A stretch of 25,965 nucleotides of DNA, from IMG/VR virus record IMGVR_UViG_2698536339_000002; one strand, written 5' to 3'. Positions 8,629 through 20,600 of the stretch are shown piece after piece. The position numbers were made by a program, and so were the translations under genes. This DNA comes from a virus (Duplodnaviria; Heunggongvirae; Uroviricota; Caudoviricetes). Numbering within the stretch: the first letter of the stretch is position 1; every line of letters starts with the position of its first letter. Below the pieces are notes generated by a model. That model saw only the letters and a list, made by a program, of their open reading frames with translations. It was not told the DNA's origin and did no database searches.

Positions 8629-10730
8629 TGCTGAATCAGGAAACCGCAAAGGCAGCACGAACCGATTCAGGTTATATCCTTCGCGCACCGAGACGAATGC
8701 GGGTTGCTGATGCCGTTGCTCAGTATATGCGGGTGCCCATGGGGGCAGGGAACTCAGTCCCGTGGGATCCGCTGGTGGCACCGTATGTTATTGAGCCGAT
8801 GAACTGCCTGGCCTCGCGTGAATACGACGCAGTGATATTTGTTGGTCCGGCACGAACCGGCAAGACTATCGGCCTGATTGACGGCTGGGTGATTTACAAC
8901 GTGATTTGCGATCCTGCGGATATGCTGATCATTCAGATGACGGAGGAAAAAGCCCGCGAACACTCCAAAAAACGACTTGCCAGAACGTTTCGCGTCAGCC
9001 CGGAAGTGGTCAGTCGCCTGAGTCCGAACAAAAATGACAACAACGTTTATGACAGAACATTCCTTGCTGGCAACTACCTGAAAATCGGCTGGCCGTCAGT
9101 CAATATCATGTCCTCATCAGATTATAAATGCGTGGCGCTGACGGATTATGACCGTTTTCCGGAAGATATTGATGGCGAGGGGGATGCCTTCTCTCTTGCC
9201 TCAAAACGTACCACCACATTTATGTCCAGTGGTATGACGCTGGTGGAGAGTTCCCCCGGCAGGGATGTGAAGGATGTGAAATGGCGACGGACTTCACCGC
9301 ATGAGGCTCCACCAACCACGGGGATACTGTCGCTCTATAACCGTGGCGATCGCCGTCGCTGGTACTGGCCCTGTCCACACTGTGGTGAGTATTTTCAGCC
9401 CTGCGGCGATGTGGTTGCTGGTTTCCGTGATATTGCCGATCCCGTGCTGGCAAGTGAGGCGGCTTATATTCAGTGTCCTTCCTGTTCAGGACGGATTATG
9501 CCTGAACAAAAACGTGAGCTGAACGGACGTGGGGTCTGGTTGCGGGATGGTGAATCCATCAATGCGGATGGCAGTCGTTATGGTGATCCCCGACGCTCAC
9601 GTATTGCGTCATTCTGGATGGAGGGTCCGGCAGCTGCTTACCAGACACTCTCGCAACTCGTTTACAAACTGCTTACTGCAGAACAGGAATACGAGACAAC
9701 CGGAAGTGAAGAAACACTCAAGACGGTTATCAATACCGACTGGGGATTACCTTATCTTCCCCGCGCCAGCATGGAGCAACGAAAAAGTGAACTGCTTGAG
9801 CAGCGGGCAGAGCCAGTTCCTTCCCGCAGTGTGCCGGATGGCGTTAATTTCCTTGTGGCGACAGTGGATGTGCAGGCGGGACGTCATCGCCGTTTTGTGG
9901 TTCAGGTAACGGGCTATGGCAGTCGTGGCGAACGCTGGATTATTGATCGTTACAACATCACGCAGTCATTGCGCGGTGACAGCGACGGGGAGAGCCAGCG
10001 AATTGATCCGGCCAGCTATCCGGAAGACTGGGATGTCCTGCTGACGGATGTTTTTCATAAAAGCTGGCCGCTGGCCTCCGATCCTTCTCAACAAATGCGA
10101 CTGATGGCAATGGCGGTGGACTCCGGCGGTGAAGACGGGGTCACTGATAATGCCTATAAATTCTGGCGTCGTTGCCGTCGTGATGGCCTTGGTAAACGTA
10201 TTTACCTGTTTAAGGGCGACAGCATCCGGCGCGCAAAACTGATCACTCGTACATTCCCTGATAACACCGGACGAACGGGCCGACGGGCGCAGGCCGCAGG
10301 TGATGTGCCGCTCTGGCTTCTTCAGACGGATGCACTGAAAGACCGGGTGAATAACGCGTTATGGCGTGACTCGCCAGGTCCCGGCTATGTGCATTTCCCT
10401 GACTGGCTGGGGAGCTGGTTTTACGACGAACTGACGTATGAAGAGCGGAGCAGTGACGGGAAATGGAGTAAGCCTGGTCGCGGTGCCAACGAAGCTTTTG
10501 ACCTGATGGTGTATGCCGAGGCTCTGGTCATTCTGCATGGATACGAAAAGATCCGCTGGCCGGATGCACCGGAGTGGGCGAGCCGGGGAACCTGGCTGGA
10601 GTGTGTCCCGGACAGTACCGAACCGTCACCCACACCGGAACCGGTATCCACGCCTGTTAAAAAACAAAAACGGAAGAAAACAGTAACTGACGATGTTAAC
10701 CCCTGGCTGACTTCCGGAGGATGGTTATGA
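8628..10730 (+). CDS. A: Terminase large subunit (gpA-like)
   Basis: 700-aa ORF with Walker A (VGPARTGKT) and lambda-order position after nu1. Pro/Thr-rich C-terminal tail with a basic KKQKRKK cluster. Confidence 0.9.
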   Translation: MLNQETAKAARTDSGYILRAPRRMRVADAVAQYMRVPMGAGNSVPWDPLVAPYVIEPMNCLASREYDAVIFVGPARTGKTIGLIDGWVIYNVICDPADMLIIQMTEEKAREHSKKRLARTFRVSPEVVSRLSPNKNDNNVYDRTFLAGNYLKIGWPSVNIMSSSDYKCVALTDYDRFPEDIDGEGDAFSLASKRTTTFMSSGMTLVESSPGRDVKDVKWRRTSPHEAPPTTGILSLYNRGDRRRWYWPCPHCGEYFQPCGDVVAGFRDIADPVLASEAAYIQCPSCSGRIMPEQKRELNGRGVWLRDGESINADGSRYGDPRRSRIASFWMEGPAAAYQTLSQLVYKLLTAEQEYETTGSEETLKTVINTDWGLPYLPRASMEQRKSELLEQRAEPVPSRSVPDGVNFLVATVDVQAGRHRRFVVQVTGYGSRGERWIIDRYNITQSLRGDSDGESQRIDPASYPEDWDVLLTDVFHKSWPLASDPSQQMRLMAMAVDSGGEDGVTDNAYKFWRRCRRDGLGKRIYLFKGDSIRRAKLITRTFPDNTGRTGRRAQAAGDVPLWLLQTDALKDRVNNALWRDSPGPGYVHFPDWLGSWFYDELTYEERSSDGKWSKPGRGANEAFDLMVYAEALVILHGYEKIRWPDAPEWASRGTWLECVPDSTEPSPTPEPVSTPVKKQKRKKTVTDDVNPWLTSGGWL

Positions 10731-10939: not shown

Positions 10940-12447
10940 TGGCAATTCTTGATGATGTGATTGGCGTTTTTTCACCAGGATGGAAAGCGGCAAGGCTGCG
11001 TTCCCGTGCGGTGATCCAGGCTTATGAGGCCGTAAAAACGACGCGGACACACAAAGCCCGGCGGGAAAACCGAACTGCCGACCAGTTAAGCCAGTATGGG
11101 GCCGTGTCGTTACGTGAGCAGGCCCGTTACCTTGATAACAACCACGATCTGGTTATTGGTGTATTTGACAAGCTGGAAGAACGGGTGGTGGGGAAAAACG
11201 GGATTATTGTCGAGCCACATCCGGTATTACGCAATGGGGCCATTGCCCGTGACCTGGCTGCGGAGATTCGCACCCGATGGAGTGAATGGTCTGTCAGTCC
11301 GGAAGTCACCGGGCAGTTTACCCGTCCGATGCTGGAACGTCTGATGCTGCGTACCTGGCTGCGCGATGGTGAGGTGTTTGCCCAGATGGTTTCCGGGCGC
11401 ATAAACAGCCTGACGCCTTCTGCCGGTGTTCATTTCTGGCTGGAGGCGCTCGAGCCGGACTTTATTCCCATGACCAGTGATGAGAGCAACAGGCTGAATC
11501 AGGGCGTGTTTGTTGATGACTGGGGGCGTCCCGAAAAATATCTGGTGTATAAAAGTCGTCCTGTATCCGGACGGCAGATGGAAACCAAAGAAGTGGATGC
11601 AGAGCGAATGCTGCATCTTAAATTTGTTCGCCGTCTGCACCAGATGCGCGGGACGTCTTTATTGTCCGGTGTGCTGATCCGCCTAAGCGCTCTGAAAGAG
11701 TATGAAGATTCTGAGCTGACTGCAGCAAGGATCGCCGCTGCTCTGGGGATGTACATCCGGAAAGGCGACGGGCAGAGCTATGAACCGGATGGTAATGGCA
11801 GCAAGGAGAATGAACGCGAGCTTACCATTCAGCCAGGCATTATTTACGACGATCTGAAACCCGGCGAAGAAATCGGAATGGTGAAGTCGGATCGTCCCAA
11901 TCCTAACCTTGAAACTTTTCGTAATGGTCAGTTGCGTGCCGTGGCGGCGGGCAGTCGTCTGAGTTTTTCCAGTACGGCACGAAACTATAACGGCACTTAC
12001 AGCGCCCAGCGTCAGGAACTGGTTGAGTCTACTGATGGCTACCTGATCCTGCAGGACTGGTTTATTGGTGCCGTCACCCGCCCGATGTATCGTGCCTGGC
12101 TGAAACAGGCTGTGGCATCCGGTGTTATCAGGCTACCCCGCGATCTTGACCGTTCTTCACTGTATACCGCGGTGTATTCCGGACCGGTGATGCCGTGGAT
12201 TGACCCTGTTAAGGAGGCTGAGGCCTGGAAAATCCAGATTCGTGGTGGAGCGGCGACAGAATCAGATTGGGTACGTGCAGGTGGTCGTAATCCGGATGAT
12301 GTCAAACGTCGGCGCAAGGCCGAAATTGATGAAAACCGCAAGCTGGATCTGGTATTTGATACCGATCCGGCCAGTGATAAAGGAGGCAGCAGTGCCGCAA
12401 CGAAACGACAGGAGCCGCAGCACACCGACGACCAGTCCGAAGAATAA
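10939..12447 (+). CDS. B: Portal protein (gpB-like)
   Basis: About 502-aa ORF in lambda-order position between W and the capsid gene. The ORF-track start at 10867 is probably an over-extension; ATG 10939 is translationally coupled to W. Confidence 0.85.
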   Translation: MAILDDVIGVFSPGWKAARLRSRAVIQAYEAVKTTRTHKARRENRTADQLSQYGAVSLREQARYLDNNHDLVIGVFDKLEERVVGKNGIIVEPHPVLRNGAIARDLAAEIRTRWSEWSVSPEVTGQFTRPMLERLMLRTWLRDGEVFAQMVSGRINSLTPSAGVHFWLEALEPDFIPMTSDESNRLNQGVFVDDWGRPEKYLVYKSRPVSGRQMETKEVDAERMLHLKFVRRLHQMRGTSLLSGVLIRLSALKEYEDSELTAARIAAALGMYIRKGDGQSYEPDGNGSKENERELTIQPGIIYDDLKPGEEIGMVKSDRPNPNLETFRNGQLRAVAAGSRLSFSSTARNYNGTYSAQRQELVESTDGYLILQDWFIGAVTRPMYRAWLKQAVASGVIRLPRDLDRSSLYTAVYSGPVMPWIDPVKEAEAWKIQIRGGAATESDWVRAGGRNPDDVKRRRKAEIDENRKLDLVFDTDPASDKGGSSAATKRQEPQHTDDQSEE

Positions 12448-12460
12448 TTCCTGGTTCAGG

Positions 12461-14419
12461 ATGCAGGCTGGTCACCAGAGTGACGCGGATATTTATATTT
12501 ATGACGAGATTGGTTTCTGGGGTGTTACAGCGAAGCAGTTTATCAGTGATCTGAATGCACTGGGCGATATCACCCACATTAATCTCCATATTAATTCACC
12601 GGGTGGCGATGTCTTTGAAGGCATCGCCATTTTTAATGCGCTGAAAACACATGGTGCGTCCATTACCGTTTATGTCGACGGTGTGGCGGCATCAATGGCG
12701 TCGGTCATTGCGATGGTGGGAAACCCGGTCATTATGCCGGAAAACACCTTCATGATGATTCATAAACCATTTGGCTTTACGGGCGGTGATGCGGAGGACA
12801 TGCGCACCTATGCCGACCTGCTCGATAAAGTTGAGGCGGTTCTGTTACCCGCTTATGCACAGAAAACCGGGAAAACCACCGATGAAATTGCTGCCATGCT
12901 GGCGGATGAGACCTGGATGTCCGGTGCCGAATGTCTGGCACATGGATTTGCTGATCAGGTAACGCCAGCCGTTAAGGCAATGGCATGTATTCAGTCAAAA
13001 CGTACAGAGGAATTTAAAAAGATGCCGGAATCCATTCGAAACATGATTACTCCGCCACGCAACAGTGCTCCACGCGTACAGGATGATGAACCTGCAGCCT
13101 CCCGGACGCCAGTGCAGGCAGCAGCACCCGTGGTGGATGAAAACAGTATCCGTGCGCAGGTACTGGCAGAGCAAAAAGCGCGTGTAAACGGTATTAATGA
13201 TCTGTTTGCCATGTTTGGCGGGCGTTATCAGACGCTGCAGGCTCAGTGTCTTGCCGATCCTGAATGTTCGCTGGAGCAGGCCCGCGAAAAGTTGTTGAAC
13301 GAGATGGGGCGCGAGTCCACGCCATCCAATAAAAATACCCCGGCTCATATTTATGCCGGTAACGGTAATTTTGTGGGGGACGGGATCCGCCAGGCGCTGA
13401 TGGCGCGTGCCGGATTTGAAAAAACCGAACGTGATAATGTCTACAACGGGATGACCCTGCGTGAATATGCCCGTATGTCACTGACTGAACGGGGTATTGG
13501 GGTTTCCGGTTATAACCCGATGCAGATGGTCGGTGCGGCGTTCACACACAGTACGTCTGACTTCGGTAATATTCTGCTGGATGTTGCGAACAAAGCCATT
13601 CTGCAGGGCTGGGAAGATGCCCCTGAAACCTATGAACAGTGGACGCGGAAAGGTCAGTTGTCTGATTTTAAAATTGCCCATCGTGTGGGTATGGGGGGCT
13701 TCAGTGCTCTGCGTCAGGTGCGTGAAGGGGCGGAATATAAATACGTCACCACCGGAGATAAACAGGCCACTATTGCACTGGCGACCTATGGCGAGCTGTT
13801 CAGTATCACCCGTCAGGCCATTATCAATGATGATCTGAATATGCTGACCGATGTCCCGATGAAACTGGGCCGTGCGGCGAAATCCACTATTGCCGATCTG
13901 GTTTATGCCATTCTGACGTCTAACCCGAAAATCTCCACAGATAATGTAAGTCTGTTCGATAAAGCGAAACATGCAAACGTACTGGAGAGCGCTGCAATGG
14001 ACGTGGCATCGCTGGATAAAGCCCGCCAGTTGATGCGCGTTCAGAAAGAGGGGGAGCGTCATCTGAATATTCGTCCTGCGTTCGTACTGGTACCGACGGC
14101 GATGGAGTCTGTTGCTAACCAGGTCATTCGCTCCTCAAGTGTCAAGGGGGCTGACATTAACGCCGGTATTATTAACCCGGTGAAAGATTTTGCGACCGTT
14201 ATTGCAGAGCCTCGTCTTGATGATAACAGCCTGACCACCTTCTACCTGGCTGCGTCAAAAGGCTCCGATACGATTGAAGTGGCTTATCTCAACGGTGTGG
14301 ATACGCCATATATTGATCAGATGGAGGGCTTCAGTGTGGATGGCGTGACAACGAAAGTGCGTATTGACGCCGGTGTCGCGCCAGTTGATCACCGCGGTCT
14401 GGTGAAATGTACGGCGTAA
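12461..14419 (+). CDS. Fused head maturation protease (ClpP-like) / scaffold / major capsid protein, tripartite capsid gene
   Basis: N-terminal ClpP-fold head-protease region (GVTAKQFISDL ... INSPGGDVFEGIAIFNAL ... VAASMASVIAMVG), a Gln/Ala/Glu-rich linker, and a C-terminal capsid-like domain, all in one frame. The ORF-track start at 12200 overlaps the portal and is likely artefactual; the first in-frame ATG after the portal stop is 12461. Confidence 0.8.
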   Translation: MQAGHQSDADIYIYDEIGFWGVTAKQFISDLNALGDITHINLHINSPGGDVFEGIAIFNALKTHGASITVYVDGVAASMASVIAMVGNPVIMPENTFMMIHKPFGFTGGDAEDMRTYADLLDKVEAVLLPAYAQKTGKTTDEIAAMLADETWMSGAECLAHGFADQVTPAVKAMACIQSKRTEEFKKMPESIRNMITPPRNSAPRVQDDEPAASRTPVQAAAPVVDENSIRAQVLAEQKARVNGINDLFAMFGGRYQTLQAQCLADPECSLEQAREKLLNEMGRESTPSNKNTPAHIYAGNGNFVGDGIRQALMARAGFEKTERDNVYNGMTLREYARMSLTERGIGVSGYNPMQMVGAAFTHSTSDFGNILLDVANKAILQGWEDAPETYEQWTRKGQLSDFKIAHRVGMGGFSALRQVREGAEYKYVTTGDKQATIALATYGELFSITRQAIINDDLNMLTDVPMKLGRAAKSTIADLVYAILTSNPKISTDNVSLFDKAKHANVLESAAMDVASLDKARQLMRVQKEGERHLNIRPAFVLVPTAMESVANQVIRSSSVKGADINAGIINPVKDFATVIAEPRLDDNSLTTFYLAASKGSDTIEVAYLNGVDTPYIDQMEGFSVDGVTTKVRIDAGVAPVDHRGLVKCTA

Positions 14420-15699: not shown

Positions 15700-16097
15700 A
15701 CCGACATACACAAATCCGCCAGGTCGTACTGGCACGCCTTCGGGAACAGTGTGGAGACAGCGCCACGTTTTTTGACGGGCTTCCGGCATTTGTTGATGCG
15801 CAGGAACTGCCTGCCGTGGCGGTGTGGCTGAGTGATGCTCAGTACACCGGAAAAATGACGGATGAAGATGACTGGCAGGCTGTTCTGCATATTGCTGTCT
15901 TCATCCGGGCACAGGCACCGGATTCAGAGCTGGATATGTGGATGGAGAGCACCATTTTCCCGGCCCTGAATGATGTACCGGCACTTTCCGGACTCATCGA
16001 CACCCTGATCCCACTCGGTTTTAACTATCAACGTGATAATGAGATGGCCACCTGGGCGATGGCGGAAATCACGTACCAGATCACGTACACGAATTAA
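15696..16097 (+). CDS. U: Tail terminator protein gpU-like
   Basis: ATG overlaps the Z stop (ATGA). Motifs ATFFDG.PA ... PAVAV.L..A.YTG ... W.ESTIFPAL.D.PALS.LI match lambda gpU. Confidence 0.8.
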   Translation: MNRHTQIRQVVLARLREQCGDSATFFDGLPAFVDAQELPAVAVWLSDAQYTGKMTDEDDWQAVLHIAVFIRAQAPDSELDMWMESTIFPALNDVPALSGLIDTLIPLGFNYQRDNEMATWAMAEITYQITYTN

Positions 16098-16107
16098 GGA
16101 GGTGGTA

Positions 16108-16851
16108 ATGACCACACCAAATCCACTGGCAAAAACGAAAGGTGCGGGAACGACGTTCTGGATGTATACCGGCAACGGCGATGCGTTTGCGAACCCTTTG
16201 TCGGACACTGACTGGTTGCGTCTTGCGATGGTGAAGGATCTGCAACCTGGCGAAATGACCGCTGATGCAGAAGATGACACTTATCTCGATGATGAAGATG
16301 CAGACTGGAAAACGACAACCCAGGGGCAGAAATCCGTCGGTGATACTTCGGCGACGCTGGCCTGGCGTCCGGGGGACAGCGGGCAGAAAAAACTGGTTCA
16401 GTTGTTCGACTCCGGTGAAGTCTGCGCGTTTCGTATCAAATATCCCAACGGTACTGTTGATGTTTTCCGTGGCTGGCTGAGTTCACTGGGTAAAACCATT
16501 GCCTCAAAAGACGTGATGACCCGCACCGTGAAAATCAGCGGTGTGGGGCGTCCGTATCTGGCAGAGGAAGGCACTGAAACCGTGGGCGTTACCGGGCTGA
16601 CGGTGGCACCGGCATCTGCCAGTGTAAAAGTGGGAGCAACCACCACGCTGACCTTTACAGTAAAGCCTGACGGAGCCAGTGACAAAGCGATCAGTGTGCA
16701 TTCGACAGATCCACAGACTGCCACGGTGACCCTGAACGGGCTTGTGGCTACGGTGAAAGGCGTGAAGCAGGGCAGTGTCAGCATTGTGGGCATGACTTCT
16801 GACGGCGATTTTGTGGCAGTGGCTACGGTGGCTGTCAGCGCCGCAGGTTAA
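16108..16851 (+). CDS. V: Major tail tube protein gpV-like with C-terminal Ig-like domain
   Basis: Strong SD AAGGAGG. Motifs KGAGTT.W.Y.G.GD..ANPLSD.DW.RLA.VKDL.PGE.TA ... YLDDEDADW ... GTVDVFRGW match lambda V. C-terminal Thr/Val-rich segment is Ig-like (Big_2-type). Confidence 0.85.
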   Translation: MTTPNPLAKTKGAGTTFWMYTGNGDAFANPLSDTDWLRLAMVKDLQPGEMTADAEDDTYLDDEDADWKTTTQGQKSVGDTSATLAWRPGDSGQKKLVQLFDSGEVCAFRIKYPNGTVDVFRGWLSSLGKTIASKDVMTRTVKISGVGRPYLAEEGTETVGVTGLTVAPASASVKVGATTTLTFTVKPDGASDKAISVHSTDPQTATVTLNGLVATVKGVKQGSVSIVGMTSDGDFVAVATVAVSAAG

Positions 16852-16871
16852 CAGGACGATACTCATCATTT

Positions 16872-16895
16872 GCCCCGGTTATCCGGGGCTTTTTT
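16872..16895 (+). terminator. Rho-independent terminator after the major tail gene
   Basis: GCCCCGG / TTAT / CCGGGGC followed by TTTTTT. Confidence 0.5.
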
Positions 16896-16908
16896 GCAGG
16901 TGGAGAAC

Positions 16909-17298
16909 ATGATGTTTCTGAAACAGGGCACGTTTAATTATGAAAAACAGTCCGTGGTGCTCAGTGAGCTGTCCGGGCTGCAGAGAATTGAATATCTGGC
17001 GTTTGTTCAGCAGCGAACGGCAAAGTTTGATGCCGGGGAGGGAGAACTGCCGGAGGCTGAACGACAGATTGCTTTTCTGCGGATGGGGATGGATATCAAT
17101 GCCTGGCTGGTTTCCCGCTCACTGTGGAATGCGGATCAGTCTAAGGATGTAGAGACGCTTTGCGCATCCGTTATTACAACATGGTCGTATGATGCCCTGG
17201 GTGCGGGGGCGGAGATGGTTCTGTCGCTGAGCGGTATGGGGGCCATTGATAATGCCGGGGATGATGAGCATGAGGCGCTGACGCCGGAAAAGTCCTGA
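16909..17298 (+). CDS. G: Tail assembly chaperone gpG-like
   Basis: Starts MMFLKQG...LSELSGLQRIEYLA, as lambda G starts MFLK...LSELSALQRIEHLA. SD GGTGGAG upstream. Ends just after a candidate slippery site. Confidence 0.75.
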   Translation: MMFLKQGTFNYEKQSVVLSELSGLQRIEYLAFVQQRTAKFDAGEGELPEAERQIAFLRMGMDINAWLVSRSLWNADQSKDVETLCASVITTWSYDALGAGAEMVLSLSGMGAIDNAGDDEHEALTPEKS

Positions 17299-17636
17299 CG
17301 CGGGAAATGCAGTTTGTCATGCGGCTTGCCCGGGAGTTCCGGCGGGCAGACTGGCGGCGGATGCTGTCGGAAATGTCGGCCACTGAGCTTGGTGAGTGGG
17401 GCGATTATTTCCGGATGCAGAGCTTCAGTGATGTGTGGATGGATGCGCAGTTTGCCTCGCTGAAGGCATTGATCGTGAGAATGGTGTCCGGCAGCAGTGA
17501 TGCTGCGGTGGCTGATTTCAGCCTTTTACCGGAAGAGAACGGGATACCGGAGCGAACGGACGAAGAACTGATGCATCTTGGAGAAGGTATTTCCGGAGGT
17601 GTGCGTTATGGACCAGATAGCCAACCTGGTCATTGA
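17274..17636 (+). CDS. T: gpT-like segment, expressed as G-T fusion by programmed -1 frameshift
   Basis: Frame -1 relative to G is open from 17274 and overlaps the last 8 codons of G. Heptamer GGAAAAG (17286-17292) sits where lambda has GGGAAAG. The ORF has no plausible independent ribosome-binding site. Confidence 0.6.
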   Translation, partial: GADAGKVLTREMQFVMRLAREFRRADWRRMLSEMSATELGEWGDYFRMQSFSDVWMDAQFASLKALIVRMVSGSSDAAVADFSLLPEENGIPERTDEELMHLGEGISGGVRYGPDSQPGH

Positions 17637-20600
17637 TTTGGGGATTGATGCGGCAGAGTTTAAAAATGAAATTCCCCGTATCAAAAACCTTCTGAATGGT
17701 GCCGCCAGCGATGCAGAACGGTCTTCTGCCCGTATGCAGCGTTTTATGGAGCGTCAGACTCAGGCCGCCCGGCAGACAACGCAGGCGGCTTCTTCGGCTG
17801 CAACAGCCGCCTCCGTCCATGCGCAGACGGTGGAGAAGAACGCACAGGCTCATGAACGCATGGCCCGCGAGGTGGAGAAAACCCGCCAGCGCATGGAGGC
17901 GCTGAGCCAGAAAATGCGCGATGAACAGGCGCAGGCCATGGCTCTGGCGGAGGCTCAGGATAAAGCGGCTGCTGCGTTTTATCGTCAGATTGACAGTGTG
18001 AAACAGGCCAGTGCGGGGCTGCAGGAATTACAGCGTATTCAGCAGCAGATCCGACAGGCCAGAAACAGTGGCGGGATTGGTCAGCAGGATTATCTGGCGC
18101 TGATTTCTGAGGTTACGGCGAAAACCCGTGTTCTTACACAGGCTGAGGAAGAGGCTACCCGACAGAAAGTGGCGTTTATCCGTCAGCTTAAAGAGCAGGC
18201 AACCCGCCAGAATCTTTCTTCTTCTGAGTTGCTTCGTGCTAAGGCTGCCCAGCTGGGGGTAAGCAGTGCTGCAGAAGTGTATATCCGCAAAATGGAGCAG
18301 GCAGGAAAAGCAACGCATTCGCTGGGTCTGAAAAGTGCAGCGGCCCGCCAGGAGATAGGCGTTCTGATAGGTGAACTGGCCCGCGGCAATTTAGGTGCGC
18401 TGAGGGGATCCGGGATAACGCTGGCTAACCGTGCCGGATGGATAGACACACTGATGTCACCGAAAGGCATGATGCTGGGCGGGGTTATTGGCGGTATTGC
18501 CGCGGCCGTCTATGGTCTGGGTAAAGCCTGGTATGACGGTCAGAAGGAGGGGGAAGAATTTAACCGCCAGTTGTCGCTGACGGGGCATTATGCCGGAGTC
18601 ACTGCCGGGCAGCTGTGGACGCTTAGTCGTGCTATTTCCGGGAATGGTATCACGCAACATGCTGCAGCCGGTGCGCTGGCTCAGGTGGTGGGGAGTGGTG
18701 CATTTCGTGGAAACGATATCGGTATGGTGGCGAGAGCTGCCGCACAGATGGAGCGATCGGTTGGCCAGTCGGTCAGCGATACCATAAATCAGTTTAAGCG
18801 GCTGAAGGATGATCCTGTAAATGCCGCGAAGGCTCTGGACAATGAGCTGCATTTTCTTACTGCCACTCAGCTTGAGCAGATACGCGTCCTTGGGGAACAG
18901 GGGCGGTCCAGTGATGCGGCACGGATAGCCATGTCTGCACTGGCAGAGGAAACCGGTCGGCGTACTGCGGATATTGATAATAACCTCAATGCGCTGGGCA
19001 GTACGCTGAAGTATCTGTCTGATTTATGGAGTCGTTTCTGGGATGCGGCCATGAATATTGGTCGTGAAGACTCGCTGGATGAACAGATTTCCGCTTTACA
19101 GGAGAAAGTGTCGCGGGCGAAAAGACTCCCCTGGACGGCATCATCTTCTCAGGTTGAGTACGATCAGCAGCGTCTTAACGAGCTTCAGGAGAAAAAACGC
19201 CAGAAGGATTTGCAGGATGCAAAAGAGCAGGCAGAGCGGAATTATCAGGAGCAACAGAAACGCCGTAATGCTGAAAATGCTGCACTGAACCGGATGAATG
19301 AAACGGAAGCAGCACGACATCAGCGTGAAATTGCGCGTATTAATTCCATGCAGTACGCCGATCAGGCTGTCAGGGATGCGGCGATACAACGTGAAAATGA
19401 ACGTTACGAGAAAGCCCTGGCATCCGGTAAGAAAAAAACACGCGAACCCCGTAATGATGAGGCCACCCGGTTATTGCTGCAGTACAGTCAGCAACAGGCA
19501 CAGGTGGAAGGACAGATTGCTGCTGCCAGACAGTCAGCAGGCATTGCCACGGAAAGGATGACAGAAGCGCATAAACAGCTTCTGGCTCTGCAGCAGCGCA
19601 TCAGCGACCTGGACGGGAAAAAACTGACGGCAGATGAAAAGAGTGTGCTGGCCCGTAAAGATGAACTGATTCAGGCACTGACGCTGCTGGATGTAAAACA
19701 GCAGGAGCTTCAGAAACAGACGGCACTCAACGAGCTGAAGAAAAAAACAATTCAGCTGACCAGTCAACTGGCTGAAGAAGAGCGCGCTCAGCGTCAGCAA
19801 CATGACCTGGATATCGCCACGGTGGGTATGGGTGATCAGCAGCGGCAGCGATATCAGGTACAACTGAGTCTTCGCCAGAAATACCAGCAACAGCTGGAGC
19901 AGTTGAGGCGGGATAGTGAGCAGAAAGGAACATATAACACGGATGACTACAGAAAGGCCGAGCAGGCGCTGACGGAGAGCCTGAACCGACAACTGAATGA
20001 GAATCGCCGTTACTGGCAACAGCTTGAAGTTGTGCAGGGTAACTGGAAAAACGGAGTCCTGCGTGCATTTCAGGATTTTACCGTGGATGCAGATAATACG
20101 GCAGGAACAGCAGAACAGGTGTTCTCGTCAGCCTTCAGCAACATGGGAAATGGCCTGGCAACTTTTGTCACTACCGGCAAACTCAATTTCAAATCCTTCA
20201 CCTCTTCTGTGCTGTCAGATATGGCGAAAATCCTGGCGCAGGCAACCATGATGAAATCGATAAAAGGGATTGGCAGTGTACTGGGATTTGATCTCAACAG
20301 CCTTTCCCTGAATGCCAATGGGGGGATTTATCAGTCTGCTGATTTGAGTCGTTACAGTGGCACGGTGGTTAACCGTCCGACGTTTTTTGCTTTTGCAAAA
20401 GGCGCGGGTGTGATGGGGGAAGCGGGACCTGAAGCCATTCTGCCACTGCGTCGTGGTGCTGACGGTAAGCTGGGGGTTGTGGCGGATATTGGTGGTTCAG
20501 GTATGGCGATGTTTGCCCCGCAGTACAACATCGAGATCAATAACGATGGCACGAACGGGCAGATAGGTCCGGCTGCCCTGAAGGTGGTTTATGACCTCGG

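Follow-up and report, generated by a model that had tools for sequence, protein, structure and literature searches.

How the T reading frame is expressed is the question raised by the overlap of genes G and T in the tail region of this phage, where the junction carries GGAAAAG in place of the G-GGA-AAG at which phage lambda undergoes its G/G-T -1 frameshift (Levin, Hendrix and Casjens 1993; Xu, Hendrix and Duda 2004, 2013, 2014, as cited in PMC5009743). We analyzed the window, by which we mean the whole stretch of 25,965 nucleotides in IMG/VR record IMGVR_UViG_2698536339_000002, together with homologous junctions from other genomes. On this comparative evidence the site appears to be the expected G-T -1 frameshift of lambdoid tail modules, real and functional. 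A programmed -1 frameshift on G-GAA-AAG very probably joins G and T, with simultaneous slippage of two tRNAs as the most likely mechanism.

The window contains the late (tail) region of a lambda-like Escherichia coli phage. Positions 16860 to 17640 are 97.8 to 99.7% identical to the phages mEp460, cdtI, Tritos and Ayreon, among others, and these four are among the viable phages that carry the G-T module. The G-T stretch was found in 1846 of 5426 complete E. coli genomes, approximately one third. When the annotation of mEp460 and of an E. coli prophage was mapped onto the window and read together with the list of open reading frames (ORFs), the gene order was V-G-T-H. The two overlapping ORFs thus sit between the genes for the major tail protein (a V-like ORF at 16033 to 16851, upstream of G, identified from the ORF list and the annotation of relatives) and the tape measure protein, as the lambda-type class requires. 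Gene G (16909 to 17298, plus strand) encodes a tail assembly chaperone of 129 amino acids, ends with TGA at 17296 to 17298 and bears the label gpG both in the PGAP annotation and in that of mEp460. Its product matched Pfam family PF06894 (Phage_TAC_2, the lambda gpG family; E = 1.8e-39) and is 33% identical to lambda gpG (BLASTP, 6e-17). The Shine-Dalgarno (SD) sequence of gene G, GGAG at 16902 to 16905 on the plus strand, stands 3 nt ahead of the ATG at 16909 and 6 nt ahead of a second ATG at 16912, and translation may start at the latter. The -1 frame matched PF06223 (Phage_tail_T; about 5e-15) and lambda T (38% identity; BLASTP, 5e-27), and the T part of this frame, encoding the gpT homologue, extends from 17292 to 17636 on the plus strand. 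According to the annotation of mEp460 and the E. coli prophage and to the ORF list, the tape measure gene H starts at ATG 17608 to 17610 (plus strand). From this start onward, H shares its first 29 nt (17608 to 17636) with the end of the T frame, and G, GT and H are therefore tightly packed and possibly translationally linked.

Two further features were observed upstream of G. Between V and G lies a terminator-like hairpin (16872 to 16895, plus strand) of seven G-C pairs followed by TTTTTT, and a rho-independent terminator is annotated at the equivalent position in mEp460 and N15. Unless it is read through by late antitermination, such a hairpin could leave G, T and H transcribed at a lower level than V. 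Farther upstream of the tail genes, a 739-amino-acid ORF at 12200 to 14419 resembles, by eye, a fusion of a head protease and a major capsid protein.

In the G frame, positions 17284 to 17298 read CCG GAA AAG TCC TGA. The heptamer G-GAA-AAG consequently occupies 17286 to 17292 on the plus strand, as the original prediction had stated, with the P-site Glu codon at 17287 to 17289 and the A-site Lys codon at 17290 to 17292, and the third base of the heptamer differs from that of lambda. That prediction had also described a T frame open from 17274 and overlapping the final eight codons of G, and both statements agree with our reading: a TGA at 17271 to 17273 (plus strand) closes the -1 frame and sets the upstream limit of the region in which a shift can occur, the frame is then open up to the stop codon at 17634 to 17636, and the 22-nt overlap (17274 to 17295) followed by the stop codon of G comprises the last seven sense codons and the stop. 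When held against the canonical X-XXY-YYZ rule, G-GAA-AAG fails, again as predicted, since bases 1 to 3 read GGA rather than XXX. It fits only a relaxed rule, in which re-pairing is cognate in the A site and near-cognate in the P site. As a bare 7-mer, GGAAAAG occurs six times in the window against 3.6 ± 1.9 expected and is neither rare nor enriched. The argument for a shift site therefore rests on the frame of the heptamer, its position within a short overlap and its conservation.

We considered whether T might instead be translated independently from the ATG at 17307 to 17309 (plus strand), which automatic annotation uses as the T start, in which case no fusion would be needed. This codon lies 8 nt past the G stop, where translational coupling is conceivable, and a separate T of 109 amino acids is annotated by PGAP and in the mEp460 and cdtI records. 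However, the ATG is replaced (by ATT) in close Salmonella-like relatives and is missing from N15-, phi80- and lambda-type genes. Across lineages, the first T-frame ATG is found at codon 6, 10, 11, 16 or 24, and ATG 17307 is thus not a conserved start. It also lacks usable SD spacing, because GGGAA directly abuts it. Moreover, conserved T-frame residues (V-L-x-x-E) stand upstream of this ATG, and T functions in lambda as a C-terminal domain within GT (PMC5009743). Three Salmonella-like lineages have an overlap of only 16 nt, and the heptamer still lies inside it. Taken together, the short overlap, the unconserved ATG and the conserved residues upstream place the change of frame at the heptamer and make independent initiation of T very unlikely; ATG 17307 is probably not used as a start. 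These observations bear out the claim that T has no start context of its own, and the Pfam matches and the T-frame similarity upstream of any ATG support the proposal that a -1 shift at GGAAAAG would yield gpT in the form of a G-T fusion.

Conservation of the heptamer was assessed in 38 distinct GGAAAAG junctions derived from 118 loci in E. coli, Shigella, Salmonella, Klebsiella, Enterobacter and others. All seven bases were invariant in 38 of 38 junctions, including synonymous positions, with GAA as the P-site codon and AAG as the A-site codon throughout, while the flanks varied. The codon immediately before GAA was CCG in 30 junctions and GCG in eight; the codon before that ended in G in 30, A in four, T in three and C in one; and the codon following AAG was variable. 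The first base of the heptamer is the synonymous third base of this Pro or Ala codon, yet it was G in every junction, whereas the third base of the neighboring codon was free. AAG is itself the minor Lys codon of E. coli (0.24; PMC3296357). Judged from these alignments, the shift site is conserved at the nucleotide level beyond the amino-acid requirement, and the heptamer is under selection. In the DNA set, Glu-Lys was preceded solely by Pro or Ala, and among the protein representatives described below by Pro, Ala or Leu. Since many other codons end in G, the E-site codon or the nascent peptide may also play a part.

A similar picture was obtained at the protein level. The G C terminus, (T/S)-P-E-K-x-stop, was conserved among 120 homologues down to 57% identity, and the approximately 20 residues preceding (T/S)-P-E-K were hypervariable. 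A profile search, with representatives clustered at 50% identity, yielded 67 full-length G proteins, about 47 of which carry E-K close to the C terminus and only five a lambda-like G-K. Where DNA was lacking, E-K was taken to be encoded by GAA AAG, a reading that held in every case with DNA. On these counts G-GAA-AAG appears to be the majority form in the gpG/gpT family and the lambda G-GGA-AAG a minority form. The rarity implied for GGAAAAG by the original prediction was thus not borne out, and in N15 the heptamer is annotated as slippery. The diversity in these sets was drawn from species-representative genomes, a phage collection and single-protein look-ups; scans of viral contigs with the family alignment or lambda G returned almost solely near-identical copies, and a scan with a Serratia-type G gave no match. 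Two proteins in which G and T are in one frame, P0026 and P0044, were rejected as natural fusions; internal deletions remove the junction in both, and they are probably assembly or deletion artefacts.

When 19 lineages, the window included, were anchored on their shift sites, five different shift sequences were found. G-GAA-AAG is present in the window, Salmonella-like prophages, Fels-1, N15, mEp213 (phi80-like), a Klebsiella phage, Symbiopectobacterium and Superficieibacter. G-GGA-AAG is present in lambda, some Stx2a phages and Serratia, and A-AAA-AAG (TCA AAA AAG) in other Stx phages, such as Stx2d_112808 (L202) and Stx1_8100 (L205). Ewingella has GC A-AAA TAG, and the Vibrio phages HY01 and K243 (L207 and L208) have C-CCA-AAA (GAC CCA AAA). 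Starting right after the shift-site Lys, the pattern [VA][LF]xx[EQ]xxF..LAREF held in all 19 lineages; the T frame reads K-VLTREMQFVMRLAREF in the window and K-VFDGELSFALKLAREM in lambda. Different heptamers thus occur at one aligned position, and the family has therefore changed its shift sequence on several occasions, with the Lys and the residues after it retained. The Ewingella-like G homologues (L013, positions 1902 to 1908, and L110 to L113) end with CTG GCA AAA TAG, and their T frame continues K-I-A-A-R-E; this site, a different solution at the homologous position, has the look of slippage by a single tRNA on A-AAA while the A site is occupied by the G stop codon.

In the mechanism that we propose, a small proportion of the ribosomes on gene G would slip back 1 nt on G-GAA-AAG. 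The shifted ribosomes would continue in the -1 frame with GTC CTG ACG, avoid the G stop codon at 17296 and produce a GT fusion with a predicted length of 242 amino acids and a predicted junction of ALTPEK-VLTR, while the remaining ribosomes would terminate to give the 129-amino-acid G. By analogy with lambda, both G and GT would then serve as chaperones of tail assembly, acting jointly on the tape measure protein, whose gene lies just downstream. In a tandem slip, tRNA-Lys would move from AAG to AAA, a cognate pairing, and tRNA-Glu from GAA to GGA, retaining G:C and A:U pairs on either side of a middle G·U. Both of these tRNAs carry mnm5s2U34. Once tRNA-Glu has re-paired on GGA, its C36 needs a G at heptamer base 1 for the first-position pair. 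The invariance of this G at a synonymous position suggests that re-pairing of the P-site tRNA is also selected, which favors tandem slippage.

The same protein would be produced if tRNA-Lys alone slipped on A-AAG, whether it stood in the A site or in the P site ahead of a vacant codon, and the original prediction had attributed slippage mainly to this tRNA. In its favor, no tetramer shifts more readily in E. coli than A_AAG (PMC4066793), the GAA-to-GGA re-pairing involves a second-position mismatch that Peng et al. term unfavorable (PMC6924986), and the related Ewingella-type G genes seem to use a one-tRNA site. Against it, base 1 is G in all 38 junctions while the third base of the adjacent codon varies, and bases 1 and 2 are GG in lambda-type sites as well. 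In addition, tetramers alone give approximately 0.15% frameshifting without a strong stimulator, far below the approximately 4% of lambda, and no strong stimulator was found here. We therefore consider single-tRNA slippage unlikely, and the emphasis on the Lys tRNA was not supported. A change of frame in the transcript itself, produced if RNA polymerase slipped on the run of four A residues within the site, has far less to recommend it: bacterial transcriptional slippage has been described for runs of approximately nine A or T residues (PMC5009743; PMC3711429), so that four are far too few, and the conserved flanking G bases fit codon-anticodon re-pairing rather than polymerase slippage. Its probability is close to negligible.

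With tandem ribosomal slippage preferred, the question becomes how efficient such a site might be. In the reconstituted E. coli system of Peng et al. 2019, AUG GAA AAG served as a "less slippery" control and gave mainly the 0-frame product (PMC6924986). Sharma et al. 2014 reported in vivo frameshifting on A_AAG of 0.147% without a stimulator, against a background of 0.112%, and of 5.6% with a strong pseudoknot (PMC4066793). The lambda site yields approximately 4% fusion, with a G:GT ratio of about 30:1 (PMC3296357, PMC5009743). The thermodynamic model of Bock et al. 2019 does not cover second-position changes in the P site. This literature suggests that the intrinsic efficiency of GGAAAAG is low, and the earlier suggestion that it may differ from that of lambda is a reasonable one.

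We therefore looked for stimulatory elements on either side of the heptamer. Downstream, the predicted fold of 17293 to 17372 (-31.4 kcal/mol) was no better than that of shuffled sequences (z = -0.18), and the consensus fold of 10 relatives was weak (-10 kcal/mol, long-range pairs only), with no conserved hairpin or pseudoknot. A downstream stimulatory structure was rejected on these grounds, and an Rfam scan of 16800 to 17700 returned only a chance match to a long noncoding RNA (E = 0.5). Upstream, the internal SD-like sequence GAGG (17272 to 17275, plus strand) lies 10 nt ahead of the heptamer, within the range of 9 to 14 nt given for SD-like stimulation of -1 frameshifting (PMC5009743), and is a candidate stimulator. 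A GGAG, GAGG or AGGA motif was found 8 to 14 nt upstream in 15 of 19 lineages of the Pro-Glu-Lys clade, compared with a background of 0.084 for an equivalent interval within these genes. The spacing peaked at 10 to 11 nt, the motif arose in varied codon registers (E-A, E-V, A-E, Q-E and Q-D), and predicted anti-SD pairing dipped to about -6 kcal/mol at this position in the Pro-Glu-Lys clade only. The clade lineages are related, and a naive binomial P value for this enrichment would thus be overstated.

The GAGG of the window is weak (-5.6 kcal/mol), and approximately 20% of positions 16 to 119 nt upstream of the heptamer pair as well. Conservation climbs gradually toward the heptamer, with no island at the motif, and N15/phi80-type GGAAAAG sites have no such motif, which means that it is not a general requirement. 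Overall, a stimulatory role for the upstream motif is possible, although we hold it to be somewhat less probable than the lack of one, and no description of a dnaX-type SD stimulator for tail chaperone frameshifting was found in the literature searched. Ribosome biophysics regards G-GAA-AAG as a one-tRNA control of poor slipperiness. Here it appears to be the predominant natural site of the gpG/gpT family, and in the Pro-Glu-Lys clade, of which the window is a member, it may be aided by an SD-like element 10 to 11 nt upstream. If this rather doubtful proposal were true as a whole, a G·U pair at the middle position of the P site would be tolerated in vivo, and pairing between rRNA and mRNA, rather than the heptamer alone, would tune the G:GT ratio.

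As GGAAAAG is common in the family and annotated as slippery in N15, the novelty of the site is low, and its nature is essentially already known. No paper on GGAAAAG as a phage shift site was found in the full texts searched. In Antonov et al. 2013, one tail-chaperone cassette has G-GGA-AAG (6%) rather than GGAAAAG, and a second cassette is listed at 7%. The main importance of the site lies in annotation, given that roughly one in three complete E. coli genomes carries the module. In every module record inspected (the PGAP E. coli prophage, mEp460, Ayreon and Fels-1), T is a stand-alone gene starting from a nonconserved ATG, and none of these records carries a ribosomal slippage mark. For the records inspected, separate annotation of T means that the GT fusion, the likely real product, is missing from protein databases. 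Screens restricted to X-XXZ-ZZN motifs (PMC4066793) would also miss GGAAAAG. The mechanistic importance is more modest: selection keeps a heptamer used in vitro as a low-slippage control invariant across many phage lineages, and it offers a natural test case for the tolerance of P-site mismatches by bacterial ribosomes and for the determinants of the G:GT ratio. The remaining interest is quantitative, namely how a heptamer regarded as poorly slippery yields enough GT and whether the SD-like motif contributes.

The closest known systems place the site in context. Lambda has homologous G and T proteins, the same V-G-T-H order and a shift site at the same aligned position (GCG GGA AAG TGT at the end of G in NC_001416), and it shares the A-site AAG, the Lys followed by V and then L or F after the shift, and the lack of an evident downstream structure. 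The two differ in the P-site codon, which is GGA (Gly) in lambda and GAA (Glu) in the window, so that the post-shift G·U falls in the middle of the codon in the window and at the wobble position in lambda. In lambda, G ends five codons past the heptamer rather than one, and no SD-like motif lies upstream, whereas one is often present 10 to 11 nt upstream in the clade of the window.

The site in N15 genes 14/15 (NC_001901) is more similar still in its bases: GGAAAAG lies at the homologous position and in the same frame (GCG GAA AAG), and a misc_feature at 10027..10033, whose bases are GGAAAAG, is labeled "slippery sequence for -1 translational frameshift." N15 differs in that its Glu codon is preceded by Ala (GCG), where the window has Pro (CCG), its G runs five codons past the site and no SD-like motif lies upstream. 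The N15-like phage HK225 shows approximately 36% protein identity to the GT of the window, and the annotations of HK225 and mEp213 refer to the N15 product. E. coli dnaX, which combines A-AAA-AAG with an upstream SD sequence and a downstream stem-loop, offers a likeness in the A-site slip of a single tRNA-Lys from AAG to AAA, and the SD-like element of the window stands at the dnaX spacing of 10 nt upstream (PMC5009743). In contrast to dnaX, the window has no downstream stem-loop, its P-site re-pairing would be only near-cognate and its SD-like motif is only 4 nt long, and its frameshifting efficiency would be expected to reach a few per cent at most, against approximately 50% for dnaX.
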